Positions 10,286-30,031 are shown, counted from the first letter of the stretch. The stretch is DNA of 64,000 nt from an uncultured Candidatus Saccharibacteria bacterium (GCA_964371255.1 CAYJKV010000003.1:8458-72457); one strand, 5' to 3'. Notes: generated from the sequence alone by a model not told the origin. Made by a program: numbers and translations.

Positions 10286-10360
10286 GCACCAGGAGAACGA
10301 TCTATCTCCTGTGCCTTTTTTATTTGTACTATCGCAGTATTATTATGTAGTTTTATTAGT

Positions 10361-11110: not shown

Positions 11111-11199
11111 TTAATATCACAAATAAGTTTATATTCTAAGGAAATTAGTCTTTGAGAACAGTTGAGCATTGTGGGCGCCATTCAGTAGCCTCAACCTCC

Positions 11200-11396
11200 C
11201 TCTTGATATACTATAAAACCATATGATCCCCTGGCTCCGTCGTCCCAATAACAATCACCGCGACTCGTTATTCAACCTGCCTCTCTACCCTCCAGCCCCT
11301 AAAAAAAATGGGGGAGTCGATCTAGCCTCCCAGCAGCTCACTACTGACGTTAATCAAATCTTAACGTCCTTCTCTGTTGTTAAAGCTCGCCGTCAG
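11200..11396. repeat. Direct repeat copy B (~197 bp), the intact 5' end of the PaaK-like gene
   Basis: Matches 8282-8477 with a few substitutions and a 2-nt A-run difference. It contains the ATG 11223 start and an open frame continuing into the 540-aa ORF. Confidence 0.85.
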
Positions 11397-12845
11397 TTAT
11401 CTGACGTAAGTGAGGAGGAATGGCAAGGCAGGGGAGAGAAGAGGGCGTTGGCCCTTTTCCGAGCAGCCGCTGAATATGTTCCCGCCTACAAAGATTTTCT
11501 TAAGAAGAATAAGGTTAACCCGGATAAAATTAAAACCGTCAGTGACTTCAAACAGGTGCCCTTCGTCGATAAAGAAAACTACCTGCGTGTTTACCCCTTA
11601 CAACAGCTTTGTTGGTATGGTGACTTGTCTTTCTCTCAAATAATTTCTTTTAGCTCTGGTTCATCTGGACAGCCATTGTTTTGGCCTCGCGGTCAAATAC
11701 TAGACACAGAAACTACCCTTGAACATGAATTATTCCTGTCATCGTTTTTTAATATTGATACAAAGTCCACCCTATTGCTCAATTGCTTTTCCATGGGTAT
11801 GTATGTCGCCGGTAGCATCACATTAAATAGCGTCCTTAATTTAGGCCGAAAAGGTTATCCCATAACTGTCGTTACTCCCGGAATAGACATGGAAGATATC
11901 ATCCGAGTCATCCCTGAACTAAATCCTCATTTTAACCAAATCATCATTGCTGGTTATCCACCTTTTGTAAAAGATATCCTCGATGAAGGCATCCGAGCAG
12001 GAATTAACTGGCAGGACATTTCCATTAAATTCATCTTAGCTGGTGAAGGATATAGTGAAACTTGGCGAAAGCACATATCCAAAATTGTTAATGACGGGAG
12101 CCCTCTCTACGATTTCATAAATCTTTACGGATCAGCTGACGCAGCTGTGTTAGCTCATGAAACCCCTACTTCTATTATAACGCGATCGCGACTGGCGGGA
12201 GATGATAAAGTTCGAGAAAAACTCTTTGGTAGTTCACTGTTACCATCCTTATTACAGTATTATCCTGAGCATAAATTCTTTGAGCCTGTAAACAACGAAT
12301 TGATCTTCTCTACCACCGGCGGCGTCCCTCTTGTCCGCTATAATATTCACGACAAGGGAGGAATATTAAGCAAAAAGGACATAACAAGTAATATCCCGGA
12401 ACTGGATGAGTATCATACGGAATTAAAACGCCAAAACCATCTCTGGAATTTGCCCTTCGTGTATGTTTTTGGTAAAAGCGACTGCACTATAATGTTGTAT
12501 GGTCTTAATATTTACCCGGATAACATAAAAACTGCCTTGGAAAGTGAAGCCTTAAGAAAAACAACTACTGGTCGGTTTACTATGACATCTGAATTCAACG
12601 CCAATATGGATCAATATTTGCTCATTAATGTTGAGCTTGCCCCCGCTACAGAGCCTTCTCAAGCCTTGACCAGTGATATTAGCGACGCGATTGTATCAAC
12701 TCTTAAGAAAATGAATCGTGAGTACCAAAAATTATTTAACTCCATTGGCAACAAAGCCCTACCCACAATACGTCTGCACAAAAAAGGGGAAGGTAATCTG
12801 TTCTCACGAGCCGGCAAACAAAAATGGGTGAGAAATAATCCATAA
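11223..12845 (+). CDS. phenylacetate-CoA ligase / coenzyme F390 synthetase-family adenylate-forming enzyme (CapK-like)
   Basis: AMP-binding motif SFSSGSSGQPLFWP (PaaK-family SSGTTG-like). The N-terminal LRAAAEYVPAYKDFL region is typical of the PaaK family. The protein is 540 aa. Confidence 0.7.
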   Translation: MIPWLRRPNNNHRDSLFNLPLYPPAPKKNGGVDLASQQLTTDVNQILTSFSVVKARRQLSDVSEEEWQGRGEKRALALFRAAAEYVPAYKDFLKKNKVNPDKIKTVSDFKQVPFVDKENYLRVYPLQQLCWYGDLSFSQIISFSSGSSGQPLFWPRGQILDTETTLEHELFLSSFFNIDTKSTLLLNCFSMGMYVAGSITLNSVLNLGRKGYPITVVTPGIDMEDIIRVIPELNPHFNQIIIAGYPPFVKDILDEGIRAGINWQDISIKFILAGEGYSETWRKHISKIVNDGSPLYDFINLYGSADAAVLAHETPTSIITRSRLAGDDKVREKLFGSSLLPSLLQYYPEHKFFEPVNNELIFSTTGGVPLVRYNIHDKGGILSKKDITSNIPELDEYHTELKRQNHLWNLPFVYVFGKSDCTIMLYGLNIYPDNIKTALESEALRKTTTGRFTMTSEFNANMDQYLLINVELAPATEPSQALTSDISDAIVSTLKKMNREYQKLFNSIGNKALPTIRLHKKGEGNLFSRAGKQKWVRNNP

Positions 12846-12953: not shown

Positions 12954-12974
12954 TTGTCAATAACGGTTGACAAA
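12954..12974. promoter_or_regulatory. palindromic motif TTGTCAATAACGGTTGACAAA in the long intergenic region upstream of the 922-aa gene
   Basis: 7-bp inverted arms TTGTCAA/TTGACAA. It closely matches ATGTCAATAACCATTGACAAAA at 16523-16544. Related TTGTCAATAAATTGTTACAA and TTGTAACAA palindromes lie nearby at 13085-13180. Confidence 0.45.
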
Positions 12975-13215: not shown

Positions 13216-15984
13216 ATGGGTACCTCACGCCGCGTGAGGGGACTCGCCATGGAAAGTCTGGAAAGAAGGATTTATCTTTCTGCCGACCCCATTAGCCTGT
13301 CCCAATGGCAGAGCCAAGCCTGGTGTACAGGCTCGGTTTCTGAACAATCCGGTACAATCGTTGTAGCCGCCAATGGTCAAAGCCAGGGAGGCGACCATGT
13401 CGCCCTCACTGACTCGCCGGCCGTGGTTGACAGTGATCTCTATCTTGAGTTCACGCCGCAAGTCAACCATCTTGGCAACGACAAGGTGGTCTTCGAGATC
13501 AGTAATGGCAGTGGTACGCGCGTCGTCATCAACCTCGAACGCAACGACGCTGGTAACCTCTTTAGCATTACTGAACAAGAAGGGTATGGTGCACCGTCAT
13601 ATATCCAGACCGTCACCATCACCAACAACACTTCACACCGCCTGGAAATGAATGTGGATGAAGCAAGTTTTACTCTCTTCATCGACCAGCTGCCGCTCGC
13701 CACTTACCCTGGACAGCTGGCCGCGAACTCCTTTGTTCGTCTGTGCGTTCGCGGTGATAGGGAAATCGCGCAATTGCAGCTGACTGGTTTAGGCGGGATG
13801 TTCTCGGACTATACCAGTTCCTTAGGTGAATCTGGTGAAGCATCCGACCCCGCTGATCCGCTTGATGCGTCGCTTTGGCAACAGCAAACCTGGAGTACCG
13901 GTCAAGTCTCATCGACCGGCAGCCAGATTAGCCTTAGCGCCAACGGCGGAGCGCAGGGTGGAGACCATGTCGTAATCTTGCAGTCCCCAGTCGTTCCGGG
14001 AGATTTCTTTCTGGATATTCTTCCCAGTGTCAACTACGCTGCTGCGAACGCTGACAGCGACAAAGTCTTGGTTGAAATCGGCAACGGTACCACCTCGCGC
14101 CACACGGTCAATCTTGTCCGTGACAGCAATGGTGATCTGTACACAATTGTCGAGACCACAGATCCAGAGGCTCAGATTAGCCAGGTGACAATCACCAACG
14201 GCCAATCTCATCGCCTCGAGGTTAATGCGACAGAAACCGACTTCTCCGTCTTTGTCGATGAATCGCTCGTCGCTGCTTTCTCTGAGCCTTTAGCGGCCGA
14301 TGCTTTCGTCCGTTTGGGGCTGCGTGGTGACAAGGCTTTAGCGCAGGTAAGTCTCACTGGCTTAAATGGCGTCTTTACACCATATACCAGCGAGCTGATT
14401 GCCGGCGCTGAACCTCAAATCATCGAGCTCTTTGCTCTAGTTACTCTGGATGCCGCTGTCCTTCCAGTGGTGGAAGTGCCCAGCTTTGTAGCTAGCCTCT
14501 CCGCGCCGGCACCGACAGTGCCAAGCATGGGTACCGTTGAAACTGCCAGCTTCGCGCAACGCATTGCTCGCAGTATTACGTCTGCTAATACGATTGCTCG
14601 CACTGGTCGGACATATTACGACGCCGACTACGGAGTAGACGTCTACGCCGGTTCTAACCAGTACTTCGTGGAGTACAATAACGGCGCTGTTGAACTGCGA
14701 GTCATCCCCTCCGGTCTACCAGCCGGCCAGGACCACCCGTTTGTTCATGAAGTAACGCCGATTCTCCGCAACACTGCAGACGTCGGTCAGGTTGCTAAGC
14801 CGGTTAGTCGAACTGGCGCGACCTTCTACGATCCGGCACGCGGTATTGATGTCTATGCCGGTGAGGGCAAATACTTGATCGAATACACGGATGGCACCAT
14901 TGAAGAACGTAATCGACCTAGCGGCGGATACATTCCTCTTCCGGAAGACTTCACCGTCGGCGGCTCGGACTATTCCGAGCCCATGTCTGCCTTCGGACCT
15001 TCCGCGCAAGTCCTCGGTCTTTCCACGGATGGCACCAGCCCCAAGTCTAGCAGCGAACTCTACTATATCGGCCCTTCGTATGTGTCGAATAGCGGACAGC
15101 AGCGCATCGCCGGACCAGGTCAAGTTTTTCTGCAGGATCCTGTCACTAAAACGATTCTTCTTCGTCCCGTGGCAGATGGTGACGTAGCTCTGCAGAGGCC
15201 CGTATCCCCAGTAGTCACTATTGCCACCCATCCCGCTACGGTCATTACCGACCTCTTCCAGCAAACCTATGGCCGGACGCCAACCAGTGAAGAACTCTCT
15301 TACTGGCGCCAACGTACGGATAAGAGTGGGGATTCATTACTTGGAGCGATGGAGTATGCGCATCAGCAGTCTGTTGATGCAACTATAACTCAGTTAGGGT
15401 TAATAGATAGCAGTGCTATTGGATACTTTGATTCAGAGAGTCCAATGTCAGCATATGACCTTCCTGAGTTTCACAGCATTTCTCAGGTCCCCGTTGCAGA
15501 ATTCGTGGTGTCCTTAAATCTTGGCTTAATCGACCGTGATCAAGCAGCAGCCACGATTTATACGCACATCGAAGAGCTTGAGTTATGGTGGAACACTACG
15601 GTGCAAACGCATCTTGATGCATTCAGTTTATGGAAGAACGAATTAAGTTTTGTACCACCATCGCCCGTAAGCATGGAAGCGTTGTCGTTTTACATCAACA
15701 GTCCTGATTACGTAGTCACTGTAGACTCTTTACCATCATTTGTAACTGGAAGTATACATGATGGTGCCTCAACATCTATCCGAATTCGTCGTATTGGTAG
15801 TATCACTGGCACTCAAGTAACACTTGATGCCTCAGGCAATATCATTCAAGTAGGCGAGCAAGGAGCAGGCTCTGACGACATGATAAGCCCCACTAGCACC
15901 CCAGGACACATTTCACTCATAGACGGTGCACGACTTTGGGGGCATGTAACCTTGGACGTGCTTCCTTGGCTAATTTTTCAGTAG
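13216..15984 (+). CDS. large repetitive secreted or surface protein (two ~190-aa tandem N-terminal repeats, two ~80-aa repeats, DUF4214-like motif)
   Basis: AAGGAG RBS upstream of the ATG. Internal duplication is visible (QSQGGDHVALTDSP... versus AQGGDHVVILQSP...; TGRTYYDADYGVDVYAG versus TGATFYDPARGIDVYAG). A DUF4214-like LFQQTYGRTPTSEELSYWRQRTDKSGDSLLGAMEY lies near residue 700. The first ~2.1 kb is GC-rich and the last ~0.65 kb is AT-rich. Confidence 0.7.
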   Translation: MGTSRRVRGLAMESLERRIYLSADPISLSQWQSQAWCTGSVSEQSGTIVVAANGQSQGGDHVALTDSPAVVDSDLYLEFTPQVNHLGNDKVVFEISNGSGTRVVINLERNDAGNLFSITEQEGYGAPSYIQTVTITNNTSHRLEMNVDEASFTLFIDQLPLATYPGQLAANSFVRLCVRGDREIAQLQLTGLGGMFSDYTSSLGESGEASDPADPLDASLWQQQTWSTGQVSSTGSQISLSANGGAQGGDHVVILQSPVVPGDFFLDILPSVNYAAANADSDKVLVEIGNGTTSRHTVNLVRDSNGDLYTIVETTDPEAQISQVTITNGQSHRLEVNATETDFSVFVDESLVAAFSEPLAADAFVRLGLRGDKALAQVSLTGLNGVFTPYTSELIAGAEPQIIELFALVTLDAAVLPVVEVPSFVASLSAPAPTVPSMGTVETASFAQRIARSITSANTIARTGRTYYDADYGVDVYAGSNQYFVEYNNGAVELRVIPSGLPAGQDHPFVHEVTPILRNTADVGQVAKPVSRTGATFYDPARGIDVYAGEGKYLIEYTDGTIEERNRPSGGYIPLPEDFTVGGSDYSEPMSAFGPSAQVLGLSTDGTSPKSSSELYYIGPSYVSNSGQQRIAGPGQVFLQDPVTKTILLRPVADGDVALQRPVSPVVTIATHPATVITDLFQQTYGRTPTSEELSYWRQRTDKSGDSLLGAMEYAHQQSVDATITQLGLIDSSAIGYFDSESPMSAYDLPEFHSISQVPVAEFVVSLNLGLIDRDQAAATIYTHIEELELWWNTTVQTHLDAFSLWKNELSFVPPSPVSMEALSFYINSPDYVVTVDSLPSFVTGSIHDGASTSIRIRRIGSITGTQVTLDASGNIIQVGEQGAGSDDMISPTSTPGHISLIDGARLWGHVTLDVLPWLIFQ

Positions 15985-16039
15985 TCCATCGTACTCTTTA
16001 GGAGACAGATTTATGGCCGCATGTAACATTGCGGCTTTT

Positions 16040-16390
16040 TTATACTACCATTCCTAAAACCATCATTATTCCAATAATAAATACCCCCAAACTTAAATGT
16101 AACCACCCAGACAGATATCTGCGATGCAGAATTCGATAAACTCCAAAAAGAGCCAGCATACCAATACTACCTATCCATAAAAAACCAAATAAACCCGTCA
16201 ATATTAGTAATAAAATTGACGTCTCGTCTCGCATCCAGGCAAAACGATTAATAGAAGAGAAGAATACACTTAAGAATCCAAGAGACATTGAAACTAATAA
16301 AGGCAGCCACCACGACTCGACATATAACCTTATAAATCTTTCAAAGGATGGTAGGGACTGAGCAGGTATCTTTTGACCGTTATTTACCAT
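16040..16390 (-). CDS. hypothetical small membrane protein (3-4 TM helices)
   Basis: Hydrophobic ORF with no recognised family. Confidence 0.35.
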   Translation of the reverse strand: MVNNGQKIPAQSLPSFERFIRLYVESWWLPLLVSMSLGFLSVFFSSINRFAWMRDETSILLLILTGLFGFLWIGSIGMLALFGVYRILHRRYLSGWLHLSLGVFIIGIMMVLGMVV

Positions 16391-16522
16391 AAATAATTTA
16401 TACTCTTAAAAAAGATATATCTCAATCTGTATGCCTCATAAAAGTAGGACATTACACGAGATGACATAGCCATAATCTTCTAAACAACTAAAATATTCCT
16501 TTAGCAGAGCGTAAAATAAAAA

Positions 16523-16564
16523 ATGTCAATAACCATTGACAAAAACCTGTTGCCATAATATAAA
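16523..16564 (+). promoter_or_regulatory. sigma70-like promoter (TTGACA-17-TATAAA) embedded in palindrome ATGTCAATAACCATTGACAAAA
   Basis: -35 at 16536-16541, a 17-nt spacer, and -10 TATAAA at 16559-16564. It lies about 50 bp upstream of the secreted-protein gene. Confidence 0.5.
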
Positions 16565-16615
16565 TAAAAGCCCAAAGTAAGCGAAATTAATTATTTAAAT
16601 AAATCTGTGAAAACA

Positions 16616-17512
16616 ATGAAAAGTCTAATTATACTTACAGGAGCGATTTTATTGCTCTCCCCATCAATCGGCTACGCGGTCACCAGTCAGGTTTGGGTAG
16701 ACGATTTCGCTGTGAGTTTATGCGGTAATCAAAGCTTCGCCTTCTCAGGAACAGCTGAACTCAATAGTTCGGAAGAATTACTGGTGAAACTAGACAATGT
16801 GATTATTAATCACACCTTAAGCGACATTAATTGGATAACCGGACTGACACCGGTTGGTGTTGGTGCTCACACGATCAGAGCGGAAATAGTTCGCACTGCT
16901 GATAATTACATCGTAAACCAGCACCAAAGACCCTTTGTTGTTGCTTCTTGTGTGGTAAATCCCACGCCAGCCCCATCCAATGAAGGCAGCAATAGTGATT
17001 CTGACGGAGGAGGTAGTTCTGGCGGTGGTGGCGGTGGAGACGGGGGAGACGACGGCAACAACACGCCAGAACCGGCAGCTAGAAAACCTAAAGTTAAAGG
17101 CGCTAAAATCAAAGGCTCGAAATGCAGCATAGCTAACCTATCAGTACCTGCCGTTGTCGCCCGTAACTTCTCGCAAGTCTTCGGCCGCTCTATTACCCAC
17201 GCTGAAAGTGTTTATTGGAAAACAAGAGCCAGAGGCGACAAATGTAATGAAATTACTTTGGCGGGCGCGATGCGATGGCATAAACAAAAAGGTTCCGCCG
17301 GACCTACCAGAAGCCAAAACGTAGCGGGTATCAATCATGTCTCAGGTAAAGTACATCAATCTCAGATAAATTCGTTATTCCTCTCGGTTTATAACCGCAA
17401 CCCTAGCATCAGTGAAAATTCATACTGGCTATCCCGAATAAACGACAAACCATCCGTGGCCGCCATGCTTGGTGCTATGAAATTTCATTTGGCAACCCGT
17501 ATATCGCACTAG
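16616..17512 (+). CDS. secreted Gly/Asp-rich protein with two DUF4214-like motifs
   Basis: Signal peptide MKSLIILTGAILLLSPSIGYA. A low-complexity region SDSDGGGSSGGGGGGDGGDDGNN is present. Motifs ESVYWKTRARGDK...LAGAMRWH and ENSYWLSRINDKPSVAAMLGAMKFH also occur. The ATG 16616 start is preferred over the track's GTG 16607. Confidence 0.65.
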   Translation: MKSLIILTGAILLLSPSIGYAVTSQVWVDDFAVSLCGNQSFAFSGTAELNSSEELLVKLDNVIINHTLSDINWITGLTPVGVGAHTIRAEIVRTADNYIVNQHQRPFVVASCVVNPTPAPSNEGSNSDSDGGGSSGGGGGGDGGDDGNNTPEPAARKPKVKGAKIKGSKCSIANLSVPAVVARNFSQVFGRSITHAESVYWKTRARGDKCNEITLAGAMRWHKQKGSAGPTRSQNVAGINHVSGKVHQSQINSLFLSVYNRNPSISENSYWLSRINDKPSVAAMLGAMKFHLATRISH

Positions 17513-17729
17513 GCGTACCGATTAAATTTATTACCGCCAATGTTACAGATAGCAATTGCATTCTTGGCTTGAACTAGTAACTATCGTAACCACTTTCTAC
17601 GGTTGCTCTCTTAAACAATCAACAAACCAATCTAGAAGTATGTCCGTACTATCAGTGCGGTACAAAATGTCATCCCCATGCATATTAGTAAAACCTATTA
17701 CCCGCTTGCTATACTTAAAAAGGAAGTCT

Positions 17730-18707
17730 ATGGATACCATACAAAAACCTGTAATAAAAAAACGTTCTGCAATTATTGATGCCGCCATTCTTGATTTGCT
17801 TGAGTACAGAAAAAGTTGCGATCAGCAACTATATTATTCAATAGATGAAAACATCAGGTTCTTTGAGGCTGCTCGTTCGTTGCCTCGTTATATTTTTTGG
17901 CTCCTTACAGAATACTCTAAAATCAACGGACATCGTATCTTAGAGCTTTCAGATTTTCATTTGCGTGAGGGTGAATGGGAAAAGATGTTGCTTGGTCAAC
18001 TGCTTACCCTGGAAAGAAAAAACATTCCAGACCTGATCGGACCATTAAGGAAACAGCTATCAAAAGAAATCCGAACAATAACTCAGCAAAAAAATGAACC
18101 AATCGTAGTAATTAATATGGGCTGTGGCGGAATGGAAACCGAGCGAAGAATAGCCTTAGGGCTATTCAAAAAACCTCTTACCCAACCCATCATCTTTATT
18201 GGTATCGATTCTTCCCCAGCTGCCATCAAGGTTGCTCAGCAAAATTTGCGTAGTTTTAGTAAGGAATTTACGCAATTGGAAAGCCTTACCCCTGATGTCA
18301 TTCATTCAATCAAAAATATCCAAACAGACAAACCTGTTCAATTTAAAGTATTTATTGGCGATGCCCTAAATATTCATAATTATGCCGAGCCTCAAACAAT
18401 CGACATAATTTTTCATTCCAAGTTTCATCATCATCTGTCAGATCAAGACAAAAGACGCTTTGACGATATGATAAGAAAGACTGCTTGTTGTGCAATCGAA
18501 TTCGATGATTATCGGGGTGCCTATTTACCTATACTCTCTATCCTAACCGGCTGGAATAAGCCCATTCTACTAAATGGCGCTGTTATTAGCAGTCTGCGTG
18601 ATCCAACTAAAGAGGATATTAAAAACTACAAAAAAGAAGGATGGATAACCAAAATCTATCCGTTAAAAGGATTTTTGAAAATACATCACTCGTCCCAAAC
18701 CTGTTAA
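17730..18707 (+). CDS. putative class I SAM-dependent methyltransferase-fold protein
   Basis: Gly-rich motif VINMGCGGMETERRIALGL followed by IFIGIDSSPAAIKVAQQNL. The start is taken at ATG 17730, which has AGGAAG upstream. The track's TTG 17556 gives a longer version. Confidence 0.4.
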   Translation: MDTIQKPVIKKRSAIIDAAILDLLEYRKSCDQQLYYSIDENIRFFEAARSLPRYIFWLLTEYSKINGHRILELSDFHLREGEWEKMLLGQLLTLERKNIPDLIGPLRKQLSKEIRTITQQKNEPIVVINMGCGGMETERRIALGLFKKPLTQPIIFIGIDSSPAAIKVAQQNLRSFSKEFTQLESLTPDVIHSIKNIQTDKPVQFKVFIGDALNIHNYAEPQTIDIIFHSKFHHHLSDQDKRRFDDMIRKTACCAIEFDDYRGAYLPILSILTGWNKPILLNGAVISSLRDPTKEDIKNYKKEGWITKIYPLKGFLKIHHSSQTC

Positions 18708-18737
18708 TATAGAAGCACCACTTAACCAGCAGTCTTT

Positions 18738-20990
18738 ATGTACGCAGAAACAGTCTTCCGTCTTATTATTCTTTCCATAACTATAATTCTCGGCTTTCTT
18801 GCATATCGCAGGAATTCTCGTCATGCAACCAATACACTTCTGGCACTACTAACCGTCCTAATTTTTTTATGGGGTGTTAGTAATGAAATATCACTTTATT
18901 CAACAACTACCACAGGCACATTGTTCTGGATCCGCATGACGATGTTTTTTGCGGTACCAACAGCTGTCCTCTTTTTTGTTTTTATGCATACGTTTCCTCG
19001 TGCCAGCCTCGCGATGTCACGTCAACTAATGGCACTCGTTCTTCTAGTGACTGGCAGTGTTATGTCACTATCGTTATCACCCTGGTTGTTCACCACTATT
19101 GCCGATGGCGTGGGAGCAAACGCGAAACCTGTGCCAGGGTTTGGCATTATAATATTTGCCTTAACAGTCACCGCCGCAAATCTAACTGCTATCTACCTTT
19201 TGATTGTAAAAAACTTTAAACTCTCTGGCGTCTTTAAGCTCCAAGCCCGTTATCTCTTGCTTGGTACAGCCATTACTCTGAGTTTAATCATGGGTCTCGT
19301 TTTCTTCCCAGTTGTCTTGCTCCGCTTCACTGCTTTTGTGCCCTATCAGAGTGAGCTCATGCTACCTTTTGTCGCCCTCACCGCCTACGCCATTGTCCGT
19401 TACCGCCTCATGGACATCCGCGCTGCCATCGCTCGCAGTCTTTCCTTTTCCATTCTGCTCGGCGCCTTCTTCGCCATCTACGGCGCTATTCTCATCTTCG
19501 CTGTACCACGTTTAGCTGACTGGTTAGGTATCCGTGAAGGGTTTATCGCCGCTGTCGGCGCCCTTCTCTCTGTTTTGCTTGCCCGCTATATCCAAGAAGC
19601 CCTGCGCCGTCTCACCGACCGTTTCCTTTTCCAAAACCAAATTGATTACCGCCGCGCTCTCGTTGAAACCAGCAAGGAACTATCTACCACCATCCACATC
19701 GAAGACGTCACCAGGACTGTCCTGGATATTATGGAGAAGGTTATCCGTACTAAGAAAACCATCATTTTTCTTCAGGAAAACAAAGGCCACAATTTTACCC
19801 CTTATGCCAACCGCGGCGCCAGTTCCATCAAAGTCTCTATCCCCAAGGAGCATGTCCTAGTTCGCCATATTCAACACAACATGGGCCTGCTTGTTAAGGA
19901 TGAATTGGCTCATGAGCGCGAGCAGGAACGCGACGAATCCCACGCAGCGGAAATTAAGCAAGTGGAGCAAACTTTTGTCTGGCTCGACATGGCTGTCGTG
20001 TTACCCCTGTACGTTAACAAACAACTGACCGGCCTGATCGTTCTGGGCGACAAAAAATCCGGCACTCCTTACATGCAGGATGACCTAAACTTTCTAGCTG
20101 CCTTATCTCCCCAGGCTGCCACCGCCCTCGAAAATGCCCGTCTCTACCAGGAATCTCTGGCTTTCGGGGAAAAATTGAAATCTGAAGTTAAGCGCGCCAC
20201 TCACGAACTGGAAATTGCCAACGCCCAGTTGCGCGACTTAGACAAGGCCAAGAGTGAATTCTTGAGCATCGCTAGCCACCAGTTGTACACCCCCATGACC
20301 GCCCTCCGGGGCTACCTGTCCATGTTGCGGGAAGGGGACTATGGCGCTACTCCATCCAAACAACAACCCATCATTAAAATTCTGGAAACCAGCTCTACCC
20401 GCCTCATTAATCTAATCAAGAATTTACTCGATGTGTCGCGCATTGAAAGCGGCCGTCTTGAGCTCAATCTTGAGTCGCTGGACTTTAGTCACATGGTTAA
20501 AGAGCTTGTCCAAGATCTCATGCCTAACGCCCTTAACAAAAAAGTTAAGCTGCAATACTACCAGCCTGCAGAACAATTGCCCCATGTCGTGGCCGACCAG
20601 GAACGCGTTCGCCAGGTCATCCTCAACATCGTTGACAATGCCATTAAATACACAGACCAAGGTCGCATTGATGTCCGTGTGCAGCAAACGGACCACACCA
20701 TCACCCTTACGGTCAATGACACGGGCCGCGGCATGACGCCGGACGAAATGACCAAGCTCTTCACCAAATTCACCCGTGTCGGCGGTGCCTCCAAATACCG
20801 CAAAGAGGGGACTGGCCTTGGCCTCTACGTTGCCAAGCAAATCATCCGCGAGCATCATGGCGACATCGAAATAACGAGTCCCGGCCTGAACCACGGCTCT
20901 ACTTTCTATGTTCATCTGCCCATCGAAGGCTCGCCCAATGCCCTCACCGCCGGCAAGAAAGTATCCGTCGAAATTAAAGCGGGGAAATAA
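18738..20990 (+). CDS. sensor histidine kinase (multi-TM N-terminal sensor, GAF, HisKA, HATPase_c)
   Basis: About 6 N-terminal TM helices. A GAF-like region ends at ...LENARLYQE. The H-box is LSIASHQLYTPMTAL. N/G1/G2 boxes NIVDNAIKYT, DTGRGM and GTGLGL are present. Confidence 0.85.
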   Translation: MYAETVFRLIILSITIILGFLAYRRNSRHATNTLLALLTVLIFLWGVSNEISLYSTTTTGTLFWIRMTMFFAVPTAVLFFVFMHTFPRASLAMSRQLMALVLLVTGSVMSLSLSPWLFTTIADGVGANAKPVPGFGIIIFALTVTAANLTAIYLLIVKNFKLSGVFKLQARYLLLGTAITLSLIMGLVFFPVVLLRFTAFVPYQSELMLPFVALTAYAIVRYRLMDIRAAIARSLSFSILLGAFFAIYGAILIFAVPRLADWLGIREGFIAAVGALLSVLLARYIQEALRRLTDRFLFQNQIDYRRALVETSKELSTTIHIEDVTRTVLDIMEKVIRTKKTIIFLQENKGHNFTPYANRGASSIKVSIPKEHVLVRHIQHNMGLLVKDELAHEREQERDESHAAEIKQVEQTFVWLDMAVVLPLYVNKQLTGLIVLGDKKSGTPYMQDDLNFLAALSPQAATALENARLYQESLAFGEKLKSEVKRATHELEIANAQLRDLDKAKSEFLSIASHQLYTPMTALRGYLSMLREGDYGATPSKQQPIIKILETSSTRLINLIKNLLDVSRIESGRLELNLESLDFSHMVKELVQDLMPNALNKKVKLQYYQPAEQLPHVVADQERVRQVILNIVDNAIKYTDQGRIDVRVQQTDHTITLTVNDTGRGMTPDEMTKLFTKFTRVGGASKYRKEGTGLGLYVAKQIIREHHGDIEITSPGLNHGSTFYVHLPIEGSPNALTAGKKVSVEIKAGK

Positions 20991-21093
20991 CCCTTCTTCA
21001 CCTACTCAAAATAAACCAGCCATCAATCGCTCATACAACTAAAAAATACACTAACTCAGTGCACTGATTCTCCGTATACTCTAAACTAAGTTT

Positions 21094-22929
21094 ATGCCTA
21101 AGCTCTCATTCGTTATTGGCGCGCTAACCATGGCCATTATTTTGGTTGTAGGCCTTTTTGTGCTCACGCCCGTGGTATTTTCCGGTCGTATCGCCCCGGG
21201 CATCCAAGCCGGTGTCCATAACCTCACCGGTGTCAGTACAGATGATTTACCATCCATCATCAAACTGCTCGAGGAAGATATCGCCCGCCAAACCGTTACA
21301 TTGACTCTCAAAGACAAGTCGCAGTCTTATCAGTTAGCGCAGCTGGGAGTGAGCTTAGATCAGGCAGCCACACGCCAAGCCATAGAGCAAAGTAGTGTGT
21401 ATTCTGTCATCGTGAATCCATCGACCATACAGCCGGTACCTCTAATTGATGCCAATATTCTGCTCCAGCAGGTTAATACAGATTTTTCTATACTCATTAA
21501 TAATCCGCTAAACGCCACCCTGCAAATTAATGACGCTGACGCACTCCTGCTCATGCCCAGCCATCCGGGCGAGGTTATTGCCACGGACGATTTAGTGTCT
21601 GCCCTGCAGGACGTCGTCACAACTTCTGCCTGGTCCACGACGATCCCGCTCACGGTACGAACCAGCCCCGCCAGTGTTCAAGATGACGAAACACAGGCCG
21701 CCCAAACCTTTGCGCAGCAGCTGTTGACCGATGGACTTGTCCTCACATTTTCTGACAAGACATTCACTATGAAGCCCTTCACTATTAAACGGCTGCTGGA
21801 ATTTGCTCCGCAGGTCGATCCTAACAATTATGACAATCAGGTACTAGGCTTGAAAATTAATTCAGAAGGTTTAGCCGAATACTTAACTACCACAATAATT
21901 CCCGAGATTGACCAACCCGCGCAAAATGCTCGCTTTGTTTTAAGCGATGATGGACGCGTCGAGCAGTTCGGTCTGCCCCAATCAGGCCAACAACTTGACC
22001 TGACGGCTACCGCTGCCAACATCGCTGCTAAGTTAGCCAAGCATGAACGCACCGCTTCTTTAGTCGTTAATGTCGCCGAACCGGCCATTTCCGAACACGC
22101 GGATATTAAACAACTGGGTATCACCGCCAAACTATCCACTGGTGAATCGGATTTTGCCGGCTCACCAGCCAACCGGAAGCACAACATCACAATCGGTGCC
22201 GCGCGCTATCATGGCTTGCTCATCGCACCCGGCGCTGAATTTTCCTTTAATGAATTCCTTGGTCCGGTCAACGCCGCTGCTGGTTTCAAACCGGAACTGG
22301 TTATTAAAGAGAATGTTACTACTCCTGAATTTGGCGGGGGATTGTGTCAGGTTTCAACGACCTTATTCCGCTCCGCCTTATACGCGGGTTTGGAAGTCAC
22401 TCAGCGCCGCAACCATTCGTATGCGGTCAGCTACTATGGCCAACCCGGCCTTGACGCGACCATTTATCCCCCTTATACTGACCTTCGTTTCCTGAATAAT
22501 ACTCCCGGATATATACTTATCCAGTCTCGTATTGAAGGAACCAAACTTGCTTTTGACTTCTGGGGAACAGAAGATGATCGCTCAGTGACGGTCACCGGAC
22601 CGATTACCTATGAGCGTGGATCGGATGGATCAGTCAAAGCCTATGTCAGCCAGCAAGTTGCCTTGGCTGATACGACGATTATCGATCAGACATTTTATAG
22701 TCGATACAAATCTCCCAAGTTATTCCCGCGTGTGTTAGCGGCCAATGGGGAAGCAACCGTGGCACCAGCCCCCGCTCCGGCCAGTGCCAAGATTAGCCCC
22801 TCGCCCGTTATTACCCCTACTCCCACTAATAACCCTACGTCGCCCTCACCCAGTATTAAACCAGTTAGTAAATCACCTAAACCAACCAATGAATCCAGTT
22901 CCGCCGCCACTCCGCCAGCCAACCCCTAA
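21094..22929 (+). CDS. VanW-family protein with N-terminal TM helix and Pro/Ser/Thr-rich C-terminal tail
   Basis: VanW core GGGLCQVSTTLFRSALYAGLEVTQRRNHSYAVSYYGQPGLDATIYPP. N-terminal TM helix IGALTMAIILVVGLFVL. The low-complexity tail is APAPAPASAKISPSPVITPTPTNNPTSPSPS. Confidence 0.75.
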   Translation: MPKLSFVIGALTMAIILVVGLFVLTPVVFSGRIAPGIQAGVHNLTGVSTDDLPSIIKLLEEDIARQTVTLTLKDKSQSYQLAQLGVSLDQAATRQAIEQSSVYSVIVNPSTIQPVPLIDANILLQQVNTDFSILINNPLNATLQINDADALLLMPSHPGEVIATDDLVSALQDVVTTSAWSTTIPLTVRTSPASVQDDETQAAQTFAQQLLTDGLVLTFSDKTFTMKPFTIKRLLEFAPQVDPNNYDNQVLGLKINSEGLAEYLTTTIIPEIDQPAQNARFVLSDDGRVEQFGLPQSGQQLDLTATAANIAAKLAKHERTASLVVNVAEPAISEHADIKQLGITAKLSTGESDFAGSPANRKHNITIGAARYHGLLIAPGAEFSFNEFLGPVNAAAGFKPELVIKENVTTPEFGGGLCQVSTTLFRSALYAGLEVTQRRNHSYAVSYYGQPGLDATIYPPYTDLRFLNNTPGYILIQSRIEGTKLAFDFWGTEDDRSVTVTGPITYERGSDGSVKAYVSQQVALADTTIIDQTFYSRYKSPKLFPRVLAANGEATVAPAPAPASAKISPSPVITPTPTNNPTSPSPSIKPVSKSPKPTNESSSAATPPANP

Positions 22930-23587
22930 ACCGGCCGCCAAGCCGAGCCGGCCTTTTAGTCGTCCTGCGGCTAAGCATGAACGAAAAGAATATAATCGTC
23001 CGTCCAATCGTCGTCCGATCCGTTGGGAAATATCCGCTGGCGGTGTCGTCGCCCGTCAGGAACAAGATCGCTGGCTAGTTGCATTATTAAAAACCGAACA
23101 CAAACGCGGACCGGTTTGGATTTTACCGAAGGGGCATGTTGAACCAGCCGCGGGGGAAACTGTTTCCGATGCCGCCATACGCGAGGTACAGGAAGAGGCC
23201 GGTATCACCTCTCTTTCCATTAAAGATCAGCTGGGCGTCACCCGTTATTCCTTTCAGGCCGAAGAAGCCTTAGTAAAAAAAACCGTCCATTATTTTCTAA
23301 TGACCACCGACCAAAAACGTCTTACCCCACAAGCTGAAGAAAATCTTATTGATGCGGCCTGGCATCCCATCGACGAGGCTATTGAATGTCTGGAGTACGA
23401 CTCAGATAAAAATATTGTGGCTAAAGCCCGCGAGAAGCTCACCGGCCAGAAAGCCCAATTGATTCGCCGCCCCTCATTCAAACGAACTCATCGCGCCGCG
23501 CCGCAACCTATCGACCCTGCCATCAACAAAACCACGCATCCCCATCAGCCAACCACTGGCCACCGGCCAAAACGGATTCACACCTAA
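22888..23587 (+). CDS. NUDIX hydrolase with Pro/Arg/Lys-rich N-terminal extension (start uncertain)
   Basis: Nudix box GHVEPAAGETVSDAAIREVQEEAGI. The frame is open from 22745 and overlaps the VanW 3' end in a different frame. The first in-frame ATG after the poly-Pro stretch is at 22888. Confidence 0.6.
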
Positions 23588-23612
23588 ATTCAACCCGTTA
23601 ACTTTTGTTGCC

Positions 23613-24656
23613 CTAATTGATCCGCTCTAAACTGCGGGCAATTTGTTGTTCCAATAATGTCGTCGGATGTACAGCTCCCGCCTTTAGCTGCTGCCAGAGT
23701 GGCGTTAACGCGGTCAAAGTTGGTATCGTATTTACCTCCAGCAGGCGAATGTCTTCCCCGTCCACACTGACATCAAAACTCACGACCCCGTCGCATCCCA
23801 CATCGTCATAAATATCTCTGGCTACTGCCTGCACTTTTTTCAAGATTGAGTTGCTTTCCAGGGGCGGGGTATTCAGGGTGACTCGTCCGGCGCGACGCTT
23901 GGCCAAATGGTCATAAAAAGATACTTTTTGCGGCACAATCACTGTTGGTGGCAAAGCCTTAACATTGCCTCGACGGTCATTGAATAACGTCACGGACATT
24001 TCCGTACCGGCTGCTCTCTTTTGCACAATCACATCACCGGCTTGTTGCGCCCGGCGCACCGCCGCGCCCAGTTCATCAATGCTGTTTACTTCCTCGACGC
24101 CCACACTGGCCTCCTCATAAACCGGTTTAACGAATAATGGCGGTACATACAAACCTCTAACAAGCTCAACAATTTTGTTGCTGTCCGCGTTTTTTTTGAA
24201 CCGCTGCATTTCGGGACTATCTACTATATTACTGACCCGTTGCGCGCAGATGTATTTATCGCTGGTTTGTTGGCACACCGGGAGAGAGGACCCCATAACC
24301 GGGATAGAAAGCGTCCTTCCCACCCCCTGGAGCGAGCCATCGTCGCCACCCACGCCGCGGACAAATGTCAGCAACAAATCTATCGGCCGGCGCAGCAGCC
24401 GCTCAATTCCTTTGGCTGCCGATATTACCGGCACTGCTTCAAACATCTTGCTCATCATCCGATGGATGGGACCTTGCTGCGGTAAGCTGCCCAACGGGAC
24501 CTGCCAACGGCCGTCTAATGCTACCCGGACAGGCGTAATCTGATACTGGGAGCGGGGGATATACTGGCACGCCCAATAACCCGTTTCCTCACTCAAATCA
24601 TGACTGCCAGCCTGGCCGCCAAAAAATATTGCGATATGCGGTTTCCTGTTTCTCAT
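23613..24656 (-). CDS. ddl: D-alanine--D-alanine ligase-family ATP-grasp enzyme (divergent)
   Basis: N-terminal HIAIFFGGQAGSHDLS. ATP-grasp motifs PLFVKPVYEEASVGVEEV and GCDGVVSFDVSVDGEDIRLLEVNTIPTLT. ATG 24656 is preferred over TTG 24662. Confidence 0.65.
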   Translation of the reverse strand: MRNRKPHIAIFFGGQAGSHDLSEETGYWACQYIPRSQYQITPVRVALDGRWQVPLGSLPQQGPIHRMMSKMFEAVPVISAAKGIERLLRRPIDLLLTFVRGVGGDDGSLQGVGRTLSIPVMGSSLPVCQQTSDKYICAQRVSNIVDSPEMQRFKKNADSNKIVELVRGLYVPPLFVKPVYEEASVGVEEVNSIDELGAAVRRAQQAGDVIVQKRAAGTEMSVTLFNDRRGNVKALPPTVIVPQKVSFYDHLAKRRAGRVTLNTPPLESNSILKKVQAVARDIYDDVGCDGVVSFDVSVDGEDIRLLEVNTIPTLTALTPLWQQLKAGAVHPTTLLEQQIARSLERIN

Positions 24657-24867
24657 TTCCAAAAAGAAGGAATACGGGTAAATCCAATGCCCTTAGCATA
24701 ACACGACCAAGGGAGGAGAAAAATCCAAATGTCCAAATACTAATACTCAATGACCAACTGGTTGCGCAATTATATTACAGGTTTTGTCACTTTGGTATTT
24801 TGGATTTGGTTGGTCCCGAAGGGATCCCTTAGGGATCATTGGGATTTGGTCATTGGGATTTTTGCGT

Positions 24868-26442
24868 CTACCTTCTCGTCTTCCCCTGCGCATCTTTCAA
24901 CCATTGAATCGTCCCTCCTAGTTTTTCTATAGTGTTCCGGTCACCTGACTCTATCCGGCCATACCAATAATCCTTATCCGCCTCGTCCGGCTCCTTTTGG
25001 TGCGTAAAGTAGAACAGGTAGGGAAACCAATGGCTCTTTAATTTGTCGCCGCCAATCTCAGCCGTCCATGACGTTCTTGCTGGCTTTTTCCCGGTAACAG
25101 CCGCCCTCTTCATCGCCGCGCGCAAGTCCGCCTCATTATTCACTTCACCGTTGTAAATATAATCCACCCAGAATTTATTCTCACTCACCGTCGGCTCCTT
25201 GTCATACGCTGTCAGGTAATAATCATTCACGTTATTAATCATTGTTCGGATATGCGGTCTCACCTTTATTAAAGTAGATGAAGTATTGGGCGCGGCCGAG
25301 GGCTGCTCTTTGCCGGCACTGCTCGCCACCACCGATTTAAAAGCGCCGATCGAATAACCGTGCGGATAGCGTTTTAAGAATTCCGGATAATTTTTCATTA
25401 CGTATTTTTGTTTATATCCCATCGCGGCGAATACCCCGGGAGAGGCGACTAACCTCAGCTTCCCGCCTTGCACCACGTAGATATTGTTACCCAAGCCGAC
25501 CACCCATCCGTTCGGGTATCTTTCAATATTTGATCCTCTTTCATGACGTGCCAACATGGCCGTATTAGCGGGTGCGCGCATACTCTCGTCCGGATTCCCG
25601 TCTGCTTCGTAAATATAATCAGAGAGATACAAATGCTTTGTTAATTTGCCTCCACTGGCTTCCTTAATCCGCCAAATCTGGCCGCCGTGCCACGCTCCGG
25701 AATAAACCACCATCCCGCCCGGATATTGCGTGGTGGAAGATAACGCCGGCCCTGTCGCAAACTCACTCAAGTGCGCGGCGCTCGTGCCGTATAAATTACC
25801 ATCCGGCATCTTGTAAGCCGCGCGTAAACTCGCTGAGATTTTCCGTTTGCGGAACTTATCGTCAATATAATATTGCGTTCCGTCTGGGTGCTGTAACACT
25901 TTACCGATGTAAATCTCATTCACTGATATTGTTTGGGGGTAACGTGCCAGGTCTTCCTCAGAAACAGTAATAATAATATCATGTTTAAAATAGTGGTTCT
26001 CGTTCAGCCACCGGTCGATCACGGCCGGCAACACCCAACTTTTCTTTCCGCCTCGTAAATAATAAACAGCGCTCTTGGTGGGGGATTTTACCAGTGTTCC
26101 GTCCGGCAAGAAATTTGGATTTATCGCGGAAGGATATAGATTTTTCGCCACTTTAAAATTTTTCGCCGTCGGTACATTGCTCGCGTTCAGACTGGTGATT
26201 CCAGCCACGCTTGTTCCCATAGTTTTTCTATATCCGATTGCCCCCACTAGTTCCCGATAGGTCTTTTTCTCACCGCGAGTGACCCGCGCGGCCCAATAAG
26301 ACCATTCAGCTGTCGTCGGCAGGCGATTGTTTATCTCTCGAAACGCTTGATTAATCTGGTCAATCAACGCCGCCTCCGCGACAAGTGGTAGGCTTAATAA
26401 AAGCAAAAAAGTGGCTATCAATTTTGCCACACGACTTCTCAT
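24868..26442 (-). CDS. secreted protein with DUF4214-like motifs
   Basis: Signal peptide MRSRVAKLIATFLLLLSLPLVAEA. Motifs TAEWSYWAARVTRGEKKTYRELVGAIGY and DKDYWYGRIESGDRNTIEKLGGTIQWL. Confidence 0.65.
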   Translation of the reverse strand: MRSRVAKLIATFLLLLSLPLVAEAALIDQINQAFREINNRLPTTAEWSYWAARVTRGEKKTYRELVGAIGYRKTMGTSVAGITSLNASNVPTAKNFKVAKNLYPSAINPNFLPDGTLVKSPTKSAVYYLRGGKKSWVLPAVIDRWLNENHYFKHDIIITVSEEDLARYPQTISVNEIYIGKVLQHPDGTQYYIDDKFRKRKISASLRAAYKMPDGNLYGTSAAHLSEFATGPALSSTTQYPGGMVVYSGAWHGGQIWRIKEASGGKLTKHLYLSDYIYEADGNPDESMRAPANTAMLARHERGSNIERYPNGWVVGLGNNIYVVQGGKLRLVASPGVFAAMGYKQKYVMKNYPEFLKRYPHGYSIGAFKSVVASSAGKEQPSAAPNTSSTLIKVRPHIRTMINNVNDYYLTAYDKEPTVSENKFWVDYIYNGEVNNEADLRAAMKRAAVTGKKPARTSWTAEIGGDKLKSHWFPYLFYFTHQKEPDEADKDYWYGRIESGDRNTIEKLGGTIQWLKDAQGKTRR

Positions 26443-27447: not shown

Positions 27448-27520
27448 ACACTAAGTGTGCACTCGGCAGGATTCGAACCTGCGACCCCCAGCTCCGCAAG
27501 CTGATGCTCTATCCACTGAG
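27448..27520 (-). tRNA. tRNA-Arg (anticodon read as GCG)
   Basis: Manual cloverleaf with acceptor GCACTCG/CGAGTGC, D-arm GCTCAGTGGATAGAGC, anticodon loop TTGCGGA and T-arm GCAGGTTCGAATCCTGC. It resembles E. coli tRNA-Arg. No CCA is encoded. Confidence 0.7.
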
Positions 27521-27825
27521 CTACGAGTGCCCAACTACGCTCTGCTTTCCAGCAGAACTTCGTTGGGCGAGAGGTACGTTATTTAACGTACGCTCGTCCC
27601 GCGAAGCCCTGAGAGAATGCGAAGGGCGAAGTGGGAAGCTACGAGTGCAAGATATAAAATTTTACAGTTTTCAAATCACGTTTTTACAAAGATCCGCGAT
27701 TTCCCCGTGAGTTTACAATACCATCAAAACTCTGGCAACTTTCCCCTTGGTACACCTTCAGGGCATGCCAGGAACTTTCCGGCCGGATAAAAACTATTTA
27801 TAATTAAAAGTGTTATACTATTTCT

Positions 27826-28527
27826 ATGATTATTAGCCGATTTCGTCGTCGCGAAAACAAGCTGCAGCCGCCTATCCCGTCCCAGCCCCAGTCCCCGCCA
27901 GCTACAGATCAATGGAGAAAAAATCACCCTAACGAACCTCTTCGTCAGGCTGCTGAAAAACGCATCGGAACAAGTCAGACGGACCCTCGTTGGCAACATG
28001 AAGCAAAAGAAATGCGGGCCACTCATGACTTGGATGAGGTTGATGATGATGTCGAAAAAGCTGCCACTTTGCTTGAATGGCGGGCGCTGGAACACGAACA
28101 TCGTCCCAAAAGTACTGTCTGGTTCGCGGTCTTGGCTGGCGGAACAACTGCCATCGTCGGCATTATGTTGTTTATTTTTACCAACATCATAGGTGCGATT
28201 ACTGTCGGCCTAATTGGGGGATTAATGTACTACATAGCCCAACAAAAACCGAATGTTACTCGCTATCGGATTATGCTAGATGGCATTGCTTTAAATAATA
28301 TTCTCTACCACTGGGAAGACTTAGCCGCCTTTAATGTTATCTATGAGCCGGGCGAAACCAAGACTGTGATTTTTCGCAGTGCTAAACGTTTTTCACCTTA
28401 CCTGCACATGGAAATAGGGGACGCTGACCCCATAGCTATCCGCGAGATTTTAATGGAATTCGTCACCGAAGATCAGAGCATTGAGGAGCCCATCGCCGAT
28501 ATCATCGCGCGCCGTCTCGGGTTTTAA
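27826..28527 (+). CDS. hypothetical membrane protein (2 TM helices plus possible bacterial PH-like C-terminal domain)
   Basis: TM helices VWFAVLAGGTTAIVGIMLFIF and IIGAITVGLIGGLMYYI. No recognisable catalytic motif. Confidence 0.45.
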   Translation: MIISRFRRRENKLQPPIPSQPQSPPATDQWRKNHPNEPLRQAAEKRIGTSQTDPRWQHEAKEMRATHDLDEVDDDVEKAATLLEWRALEHEHRPKSTVWFAVLAGGTTAIVGIMLFIFTNIIGAITVGLIGGLMYYIAQQKPNVTRYRIMLDGIALNNILYHWEDLAAFNVIYEPGETKTVIFRSAKRFSPYLHMEIGDADPIAIREILMEFVTEDQSIEEPIADIIARRLGF

Positions 28528-28731
28528 AACCAAAAGCTGCAAGATAAAACGACGGATAAAAACCGCCGTTATTTATTTGGGCGGGCCACTAGAGTTAAGT
28601 GCCACCACAGTATGGTATGTTGAGGCCTTTTTCAAGCATTAGTTTGGGCTTGGATTTGAGGCACTCGAGTCGCTATCTAATTTCCGAACTGTTACAAATG
28701 TTACGTTTTTTGGGTTTTGGAGTGTAACATT

Positions 28732-29557: not shown

Positions 29558-29574
29558 ATTGTAACTATAGTATT

Positions 29575-29614
29575 TGCACTTTGATTTGACAAGTGCATTT
29601 ACGTTTTGATAAAT
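29575..29614 (+). promoter_or_regulatory. divergent promoter/operator: palindrome TGCACT-N11-AGTGCA overlapping a TTGACA-17-ATAAAT promoter
   Basis: -35 TTGACA at 29586-29591, a 17-nt spacer, and -10 ATAAAT at 29609-29614, reading toward the GIY-YIG gene. Inverted repeat arms lie at 29575-29580 and 29592-29597. The XRE gene diverges from this region. Confidence 0.5.
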
Positions 29615-29692
29615 TGTGTATAGCAAAGTGAAAGCCGATAGGTCGACGGTGTTCAGCTTTGTCACTTAATTAACAATAGGTAAAAAATCACT

Positions 29693-29998: not shown

Positions 29999-30031
29999 TA
30001 CGGAAAATCCGTAAAATTAAGCTGAGGCGTA

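Follow-up and report, generated by a model that had tools for sequence, protein, structure and literature searches.

A divergent DUF4214 variant shared by three otherwise unrelated proteins of a Candidate Phyla Radiation bacterium: a putative envelope-retention module

Introduction

DUF4214 (Pfam PF13946) is a widespread domain with scant experimental characterization. For the surface proteins of segmented filamentous bacteria (SFB), it has been singled out as the likely anchor to the cell surface (PMC12780176), and proteins that carry it have been called S-layer associated (PMC11970703). In Pseudomonas putida KT2440, the RTX-DUF4214 protein Psh, a substrate of a type I secretion system (T1SS), binds the O-antigen of lipopolysaccharide (LPS) and blocks phages, and InterPro is reported to place DUF4214 in the phycobilisome (PBS)-linker superfamily (G3DSA 1.10.3130.20) (bioRxiv 10.64898/2026.09.02.748959). 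Here, we analyze a stretch of 64,000 nucleotides (nt), hereafter the window, from an uncultured Candidatus Saccharibacteria bacterium (GCA_964371255.1, CAYJKV010000003.1:8458-72457), in which three open reading frames (ORFs), p922, p301, and p524, share a motif that an initial annotation, made from the sequence alone, had labelled DUF4214-like. The surfaces of bacteria of the Candidate Phyla Radiation (CPR)/Patescibacteria, which mediate episymbiosis, are poorly understood.

Two other described systems are relevant for comparison. EccB belongs to the type VII secretion system (T7SS); the repeats of EccB1 resemble the cell-wall-binding protein PlyCB, and peptidoglycan binding was suggested by Wagner et al., although not proven experimentally (PMC4769845). 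The N-terminal domain of the Caulobacter S-layer protein RsaA (PF19198, PDB 7peo) mediates anchoring to the O-antigen.

Judged by profile comparison, the motif of the window is a divergent subfamily of DUF4214, embedded in three different architectures. Our preferred reading, to which we assign a probability of roughly 0.55, is that this variant acts as a noncovalent retention or targeting module on the cell envelope, with p922 and p301 belonging to a conserved cassette that would answer to one regulator.

Results

A motif of about 50 residues in three open reading frames

The motif has the signature hxxhFxxhhxRxPxxxExxYWxxR-(6-9)-LxGAMxxh and occurs in six copies of about 50 amino acids (aa), one in p922, two in p301, and three in p524:

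13216-15984, plus strand: p922 ORF, 922 aa
16607-17512, plus strand: p301 ORF, 301 aa
24868-26442, minus strand: p524 ORF, 524 aa
15232-15396, plus strand: DUF4214-like copy of p922, aa 673-727, VITDLFQQTYGRTPTSEELSYWRQRTDKSGDSLLGAMEYAHQQ
17147-17296, plus strand: DUF4214-like copy 1 of p301, aa 181-230 (hidden Markov model [HMM], hhalign)
17357-17506, plus strand: DUF4214-like copy 2 of p301, aa 251-300 (subthreshold Pfam DUF4214 match at aa 249-280, E 0.018)
26218-26370, minus strand: DUF4214 copy 1 of p524, aa 25-75, the part with the highest PF13946 score in orthologues (hhalign 99.3%, E 3.5e-20)
25087-25245, minus strand: DUF4214 copy 2 of p524, aa 400-452, degenerate (FWVDY...AAMKRA; hhalign 97.6%)
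24883-25041, minus strand: DUF4214 copy 3 of p524, aa 468-520 (hhalign 97.1%)

All peptides quoted in the initial annotation are present in the window translations, and its counts stand for p922 and p301. For p524, "at least twice" becomes three times, the degenerate middle copy having been overlooked, and the motif itself, given there as ~35 aa, is part of a longer unit. An HMM built from the six copies found no further match among 1163 six-frame fragments of the window. Since this six-copy test is circular, it was repeated leaving out one protein each time, and the omitted protein was the top nontraining match for p922 (E 1e-7), p301 (E 1.3e-20), and p524 (E 1.4e-13) alike. The similarity among the three proteins is therefore real.

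The motif as a divergent form of DUF4214

In a Pfam scan, where the gathering cut-off for DUF4214 is 23.2 bits, this family was the only match for p301 (E 0.018, 15.5 bits) and p524 (E 0.017, 15.6 bits), and p922 had no DUF4214 match. Homologues of p301 are similarly weak, at 13.8 to 15.1 bits. By Pfam's own threshold, then, the window proteins would escape DUF4214 annotation. The label proposed initially is nevertheless upheld by three other lines of evidence. Among 66 aligned p524 orthologues, 54 match DUF4214 at E<=0.01 (best 3e-11), and all ten that were examined exceed the cut-off, with 24 to 44 bits; the best-scoring stretches, which fall in copies 1 and 3, span profile positions ~22-62 of 72. 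When p922 was searched exhaustively with phmmer against 1.84 billion representatives, the motif region alone matched seven proteins, for all of which DUF4214 was the top Pfam family; five (P0164, P0168, P0169, P0173, and P0177) lie above the cut-off, with 31 to 156 bits on PF13946. The direct matches include the canonical DUF4214 proteins P0168, P0169, and P0177, and scores in this group reach 152 to 156 bits over three to five repeats; P0168 additionally shows a weak overlap with RsaA_NTD. Finally, the p301 and p922 copies, combined into one profile, aligned in hhalign with the three p524 copy profiles at 99.3% (E 3.5e-20), 97.6%, and 97.1%. Because the orthologue matches, the direct phmmer matches, and the profile-profile alignment bridge the gap left by the Pfam scan, we regard the motif as a divergent subfamily homologous to bona fide DUF4214 members.

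The predicted structure fits this assignment. The AlphaFold2 (AF2) model built on the p524 alignment reached a predicted local distance difference test (pLDDT) score of 91.2, and that of the C-terminal double module alone reached 96.3; in these models each DUF4214 copy consists of three to four helices. Hence, the variant would be a small all-helical domain, present in one, two, and three copies, with Sec signal peptides on two of its carriers. Foldseek gave nonsignificant matches to PBS linkers (2ky4, E 2.7, TM-score 0.30; 5y6p, E 4.4), Pfam PF00427 (PBS linker) has no match in the window proteins and is comatched only by distant canonical DUF4214 proteins, and a profile search of PDB sequences with the motif found nothing, the best candidate being a HAT/TPR-like protein (E 0.37). 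The relation between DUF4214 and PBS linkers is thus unconfirmed for the window variant, as the Foldseek and PDB matches are nonsignificant.

Compared with canonical DUF4214, the window copies share the core signature FGRxP...E..YW..., the same profile positions, and the helical character, and they likewise occur one to several times on exported multidomain proteins, such as SFB surface proteins and RTX or S-layer-associated proteins. They differ in being short (~50 aa), in scoring only 13 to 16 bits, and in having their own tail motif, R-x-DK...L-x-GAM-x-x-H/K. Their partners (EccB-like repeats, tandem lectin-like repeats, and a virus-associated module) are unreported for DUF4214.

Three otherwise unrelated carriers

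The initial annotation had described three secreted paralogues within 13 kb and suggested a local expansion. BLAST alignments among p922, p301, and p524 are confined to the motif regions. Copies within p301 are 35% identical and those within p524 are 23 to 34% identical, whereas the p922 copy is 45 to 47% identical to those of p301 and 60% identical to that of P0134, a member of an unrelated virus-associated family. In a word index, p922 has 2 homologues and p301 has 7 (the exhaustive HMMER search found 50 for p922), whereas p524 has more than 130 orthologues and is a conserved single-copy gene. Paralogy and tandem expansion were therefore rejected: there is no similarity beyond the domain, identity within proteins (23 to 35%) is lower than that between proteins, and the single-copy conservation of p524 and the rarity of p922 and p301 also speak against them. 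Only the domain is common to the three proteins, and its copies, to judge by their identities, are old and came with their host architectures. As for secretion, the prediction holds for p301 and p524, both of which have Sec-type N termini; for p922 no classical secretion route is apparent.

p524, a putative cell-wall-associated protein

The best named matches of p524 are from "Candidatus Andersenbacteria bacterium," with up to 83% identity, and on this basis we ascribe the window to a CPR/Patescibacteria genome of this group. The protein begins with a Sec-type signal peptide, MRSRVAKLIATFLLLLSLPLVAEA followed by A, with cleavage after AEA24, and has no other hydrophobic segment; after it come one DUF4214 copy, four EccB-like repeats, and two further DUF4214 copies. 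The repeats and the neighboring genes are as follows:

25363-26100, minus strand: four beta3-alpha2 repeats of p524, aa 115-360 (AF2 pLDDT 91, DSSP, Foldseek against PDB)
23613-24662, minus strand: D-Ala-D-Ala ligase gene (ddl), directly downstream of p524 and in the same orientation, an adjacency kept in other Andersenbacteria
21094-22929, plus strand: VanW/PG_binding_4 protein, in a conserved block with the histidine kinase
18738-20990, plus strand: seven-transmembrane (7TM)-GAF histidine kinase, in a conserved block with VanW

The only significant PDB matches of the p524 model are the periplasmic repeat domains of EccB1 and EccB5 (Foldseek E from 2.8e-5, with a probability of 0.95, to 1e-3). 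With TM-scores of only ~0.11, the likeness is limited to the repeat unit and does not extend to the overall assembly. Like EccB, p524 is predicted to have four repeats of a beta-sheet and two helices. Unlike EccB, which has an N-terminal transmembrane anchor, it carries a cleavable signal peptide, its repeats are flanked by DUF4214 domains, and neither an EccB central core nor further ESX genes turned up. Its neighbors are instead ddl, NUDIX, VanW, and histidine kinase genes, and the histidine kinase/VanW block (18738-22929, plus strand) connects the p922/p301 region to the p524-ddl pair. The order p524, ddl, NUDIX, VanW/PG_binding_4, histidine kinase recurs at ~60% identity in loci L003 and L005 and partly in L004, where ddl also lies near the p524 orthologue. 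Since this neighborhood recurs in independent Andersenbacteria genomes, it supports a conserved cell-wall-associated role for p524. Aromatic and arginine residues are invariant at Y49, R53, W425, W493, and R496, and these are of a kind seen in carbohydrate sites.

A phage-like block (ParB-methylase, a terminase-like gene, and a serine recombinase) precedes the p524 orthologue in the Andersenbacteria genome GCA_016197005.1 (L003 449-5848), and the p301 homologue P0126 (L002 1-1903) adjoins a serine recombinase/MerR-type excisionase and heavy-metal genes. From these settings, it would appear that DUF4214 carriers often border mobile DNA.

p922 and its virus-associated relatives

p922 has a strong ribosome-binding site, AAAGGAG. 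An upstream alternative start that would supply a signal peptide was looked for and discarded, position 13216 being the first start codon of the ORF. The following elements precede its DUF4214 copy, which is itself followed by the C-terminal ~190 aa:

13243-13296, plus strand: aa 10-27, motif of the LEPR-XLL/"Planctomycete extracellular" type, LAMESLERRIYLSADPIS, subthreshold
13282-14403, plus strand: aa 23-396, two tandem ~185-aa repeats with galectin/LamG-like (ConA-like lectin) signals (self-BLAST, Pfam)
14584-14925, plus strand: aa 457-570, two ~44-aa repeats, RTGxTxYDxxxGxDVYAGxxxYxxEYxxGxxExRxxPSG (self-comparison)

Within the first element, ESLERRIYLSA matched PF07595 with E 0.054 (13.7 bits versus a cut-off of 25.5) and NF012209 with E 0.09 (12.5 versus 17). 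The motif is kept in the true N terminus of the p922 homologue P0130 (42% identical), and the N terminus of another relative, P0132, when scanned alone, scored 27.8 bits, over the Pfam cut-off for PF07595. In p922, P0130, and P0132, as in large extracellular proteins of Planctomycetes, the motif lies at the extreme N terminus; the case of p922 differs in that the match is subthreshold and the genome is that of a CPR bacterium. The public gene call for P0130 starts at MLSADP and cuts off this N terminus. The two ~185-aa repeats are 46% identical (self-BLAST E 6e-55). Gal-bind_lectin scored 23.9 bits against a cut-off of 22.1, over the last 60 profile positions only, and matches to Laminin_G were weak.

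The ~44-aa repeats open a core module (aa ~435-720, including the DUF4214 copy) that is common to about 40 proteins of ~600 to 830 aa with long coiled-coil C termini. Members of ~770 aa were located as follows:

9662-11992 of L044 (IMG/VR UViG_3300020213_000049): coiled-coil family member
L045: coiled-coil family member
2941-5250 of L043: coiled-coil family member

This family carries the p922-type repeat together with a DUF4214-like module, FGRxPxxxELxYWxGRTDKxGAALxGAMQFAKQ. Its genes sit in gene-dense unidirectional clusters without Pfam matches (L043), and two of them, in L044 and L045, lie in IMG/VR viral contigs; these two loci emerged only from an alignment-based search, a single-protein search of viral contigs having found nothing. 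In L044, the homologue is located between a beta-helix/"minor tail"-like ORF and an M23 peptidase. Pfam DUF4214 had no match in the coiled-coil members scanned (P0133-P0138, P0144, and P0153), and PHROGs had none for p922, p301, or p524 or for the coiled-coil relatives scanned (P0133-P0136 and P0144).

p301 and a conserved cassette

p301 consists of a signal peptide (aa 1-24; a clear Sec-type N terminus, MKTMKSLIILTGAILLLSPSIGYA, with V after the cleavage site), an N-terminal domain of ~95 aa with two cysteines and no family match, a Gly/Ser/Asp-rich linker, and the two DUF4214-like copies. A single copy is present in one of the seven homologues from the word index, and the N-terminal module differs in one. 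Between p922 and p301 lies a further gene, divergent from p301:

16040-16390, minus strand: 116-aa predicted membrane protein, no family match

The gene order p922 homologue, opposite-strand small membrane protein, p301 homologue is the same in the window, in an ~80% identical relative (L001), and in a distant lineage whose proteins are 42 to 52% identical (L048, JGI 3300009373). In L001 and L048, the middle position is held by genes of 121 and 143 aa, respectively, and since this position is kept in all three lineages, the small membrane protein belongs to the cassette. Thus, p922, the small membrane protein, and p301 form a conserved cassette. In L048, it runs on into ThiF, a 539-aa gene, a 7TM histidine kinase, VanW, and NUDIX, so that the ThiF and 539-aa genes stand there between the p301 homologue and the histidine kinase. 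In our reading, p922 and p301 would be accessory proteins of the cell surface and could plausibly serve as adhesins.

In public annotations, the start of p301 homologues (the 286-aa P0121 and P0123) is placed 15 codons too late, with loss of the signal peptide. Given these late starts and that of P0130 (window 16607-16651, L001 5441-5483, and L048 1908-1983), annotation-based secretome predictions would miss these proteins.

Upstream of p922, a run of enzyme genes (window 5494-12845) encodes a ThiF-like protein (5494-6726), a NUDIX protein (6927-7409), a radical SAM/SPASM protein (8951-10285), a class I methyltransferase (10361-11110), and a PaaK/F390-synthetase-like adenylating enzyme (11223-12845). 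This run may be a peptide or metabolite maturation cluster.

A palindrome upstream of p922 and p301

The initial annotation had noted that two of the carriers share a promoter palindrome, and this proved to be the case for p922 and p301:

12955-12972: 18-bp palindrome TGTCAATAACGGTTGACA, candidate operator, located 244 nt before the p922 start codon
16524-16541: 18-bp palindrome TGTCAATAACCATTGACA, located 66 nt before the p301 start, with TTGACA-17 nt-TATAAA following

The common form is TGTCAATAAC[GG/CA]TTGACA, in which the right arm, TTGACA, is a -35-like hexamer. These two are the only TGTCAA-N(2-10)-TTGACA sites in the 64 kb, against 0.03 expected. Both are kept in L001, where the p301 site is identical. 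In L048, TGTYAA-N6-TTGACA occurs exactly twice in 14 kb (0.01 expected), upstream of the homologues of p922 (TGTCAATAGGGTTTGACA) and p301 (a degenerate site, TGTTAAGTATTATTGACA). The palindrome is probably the binding site of one dimeric regulator, and p922 and p301 would then be coregulated through a shared candidate operator that overlaps the -35-like hexamer.

Three extensions of this picture were rejected. p524 does not share the palindrome; it is preceded only by an ordinary promoter of the TTGCTT...TATAAT-like kind and by the terminator of the gene before it. Nor is the palindrome widespread: when 185,579 species genomes were scanned for exact matches, 37 scattered ones appeared in unrelated taxa, about as many as chance would give, and none is informative. 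The TTGACA arm was not called as a canonical sigma-70 promoter by a consensus scanner; the best promoter fit for p301 is TTGACA-17-TATAAA, and p922 has no good -10 element at the right distance.

Elsewhere in the window, a copy of the palindrome with two mismatches (TGTAAATAATCATTGACA) is found at 51900-51917 (minus strand), between tRNA-Met genes at 51670-51742 and 52215-52291. The only response-regulator-like sequence is a stand-alone receiver-domain ORF (42211-42618), right after a 576-aa ORF (40480-42210), and the 7TM-GAF histidine kinase has no adjacent partner.

Discussion

In the preferred reading, the DUF4214 variant would bind a cell-envelope glycopolymer, either peptidoglycan associated or another surface polysaccharide, and thereby hold variable "business" domains at the cell surface. 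The domains displayed in this way would be the EccB/PlyCB-like repeats of p524, the lectin-like repeats of p922, and the N-terminal domain of p301 on its flexible linker, and one dimeric regulator would bind TGTCAA-N6-TTGACA before p922 and p301. Domain homology, architecture, signal peptides, synteny, and palindrome conservation are direct observations. Anchoring is suggested by the presence of export signals in two proteins, by the wall-related genes around p524, and by the literature; glycan binding by the variant is put forward by analogy, and p922 would likewise be located at the surface.

The nearest precedent for binding to an envelope glycan is Psh, which carries DUF4214 and, once secreted, attaches to a surface polysaccharide. 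The window proteins differ from it in that p922, p301, and p524 have no RTX/HemolysinCabind Pfam match, no ABC or MFP genes of a T1SS were found among the neighbors scanned, and export would proceed via Sec signal peptides. To our knowledge, their host, unlike that of Psh, is a CPR bacterium without LPS O-antigen. RsaA is a more distant comparison: the similarity of the window domain to its N-terminal domain is far below significance, and the window proteins have no Ca-binding or S-layer body.

Several points weigh against envelope retention under a common regulator. None of the three proteins reaches the PF13946 gathering score. The N terminus of p922 has no hydrophobic segment (maximum Kyte-Doolittle value of 0.87 over 11 aa), and the only library matches for its N-terminal motif, PF07595 and NF012209, are subthreshold. 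The analogies for anchoring were drawn outside the CPR, in diderm Proteobacteria and in Clostridia. As for regulation, no regulator gene was found beside the palindromes, the window encodes no DNA-binding response regulator, and the conservation of the palindrome could partly reflect promoter function, since one arm is a -35 consensus.

How far these observations favor another explanation can be considered for each in turn. That the likeness between the copies is a matter of chance or composition, or of a generic helical repeat of the HAT/TPR kind, with a spurious DUF4214 label, seems to us very improbable. It could appeal to the subthreshold Pfam scores and to the HAT/TPR-like protein as the sole PDB sequence match to the profile, but it is contradicted by leave-one-out E values as low as 1e-20, by the hhalign values of 97 to 99%, by the p524 orthologues and direct phmmer matches that exceed the DUF4214 cut-off, and by the lack of a match to the motif HMM in any other window fragment. 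On the strength of the leave-one-out HMMs, hhalign, and the six-frame scan, a compositional origin was rejected. A more serious, albeit unlikely, alternative is that the DUF4214 copies are protein-protein assembly modules, comparable to PBS linkers and acting in S-layer lattice formation or oligomerization rather than in glycan binding, so that the three proteins would be subunits or accessories of a proteinaceous surface layer. Canonical DUF4214 proteins do comatch PBS_linker_poly (P0169 with 34.6 bits, above the cut-off, and P0168 with 24.3 bits), which agrees with the InterPro grouping, the presence of a PBS linker in the Foldseek list, and the S-layer association in the literature. However, that fold match is nonsignificant, Psh, the only DUF4214 protein studied by experiment, has O-antigen as its ligand, and the context of p524 (ddl, VanW, and EccB/PlyCB-like repeats) indicates the wall and not a protein lattice.

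The relatives of p922 raise the question of whether this protein, or perhaps the whole p922/p301 cassette, is viral in origin or acts in phage-host conflict, either as a domesticated tail-module or receptor-binding protein or as a Psh-like receptor-masking protein, with DUF4214 recognizing an envelope polymer targeted by phages. We consider this somewhat less probable than a protein lattice. It would account for the sharing of the core module with the coiled-coil family of unidirectional clusters and two IMG/VR contigs, for the tail-like ORF and M23 peptidase that flank the L044 homologue, and for the 60% identity between the p922 copy and that of the coiled-coil family; Psh offers a precedent, and the G+C content is 0.51 in the p922 region versus 0.40 in the adjacent p301 region. 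Against this, no other window gene resembles viral contigs, the cassette occupies a conserved chromosomal neighborhood in three lineages, PHROGs gave no matches, and the viral nature of L043 to L045 depends on the IMG/VR classification and weak matches. Conceivably, the cassette might be a conserved, palindrome-controlled Andersenbacteria surface module for host-cell attachment or phage-receptor masking, in which the DUF4214 variant, 60% identical to its counterpart in tail-module proteins of uncultivated viruses, recognizes a CPR-specific envelope polymer. This proposal is more speculative still, and by our estimate doubtful; if it is true, host surface proteins and their phages would share one cell-wall "address tag."

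The value of these results lies in incremental annotation; DUF4214 itself was already known, and current concepts are unchanged. Assigning the subthreshold "YW..R..DK..GAM" variant to DUF4214 widens the detectable range of the family in CPR genomes. New elements are p524, a putatively wall-associated Andersenbacteria protein built from DUF4214 and EccB/PlyCB-like repeats and encoded beside ddl, and a small candidate regulon defined by a clean 18-bp operator. The analysis also yields candidate surface markers and adhesins of Andersenbacteria, and it connects surface proteins of the host with tail-module proteins of viruses in a way that can be tested.

Additional observations

Beyond p524, the region from 27457 to 31605 contains genes for an ImmA/IrrE-type Peptidase_M78 (28732-29271, minus strand) and a Bro-N protein (30257-31096, minus strand), flanked by tRNA-Arg (27457-27530) and a tRNA-Ser/Lys/Ser cluster (31188-31605). 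The arrangement resembles the remnant of a prophage or mobile element at tRNA genes.

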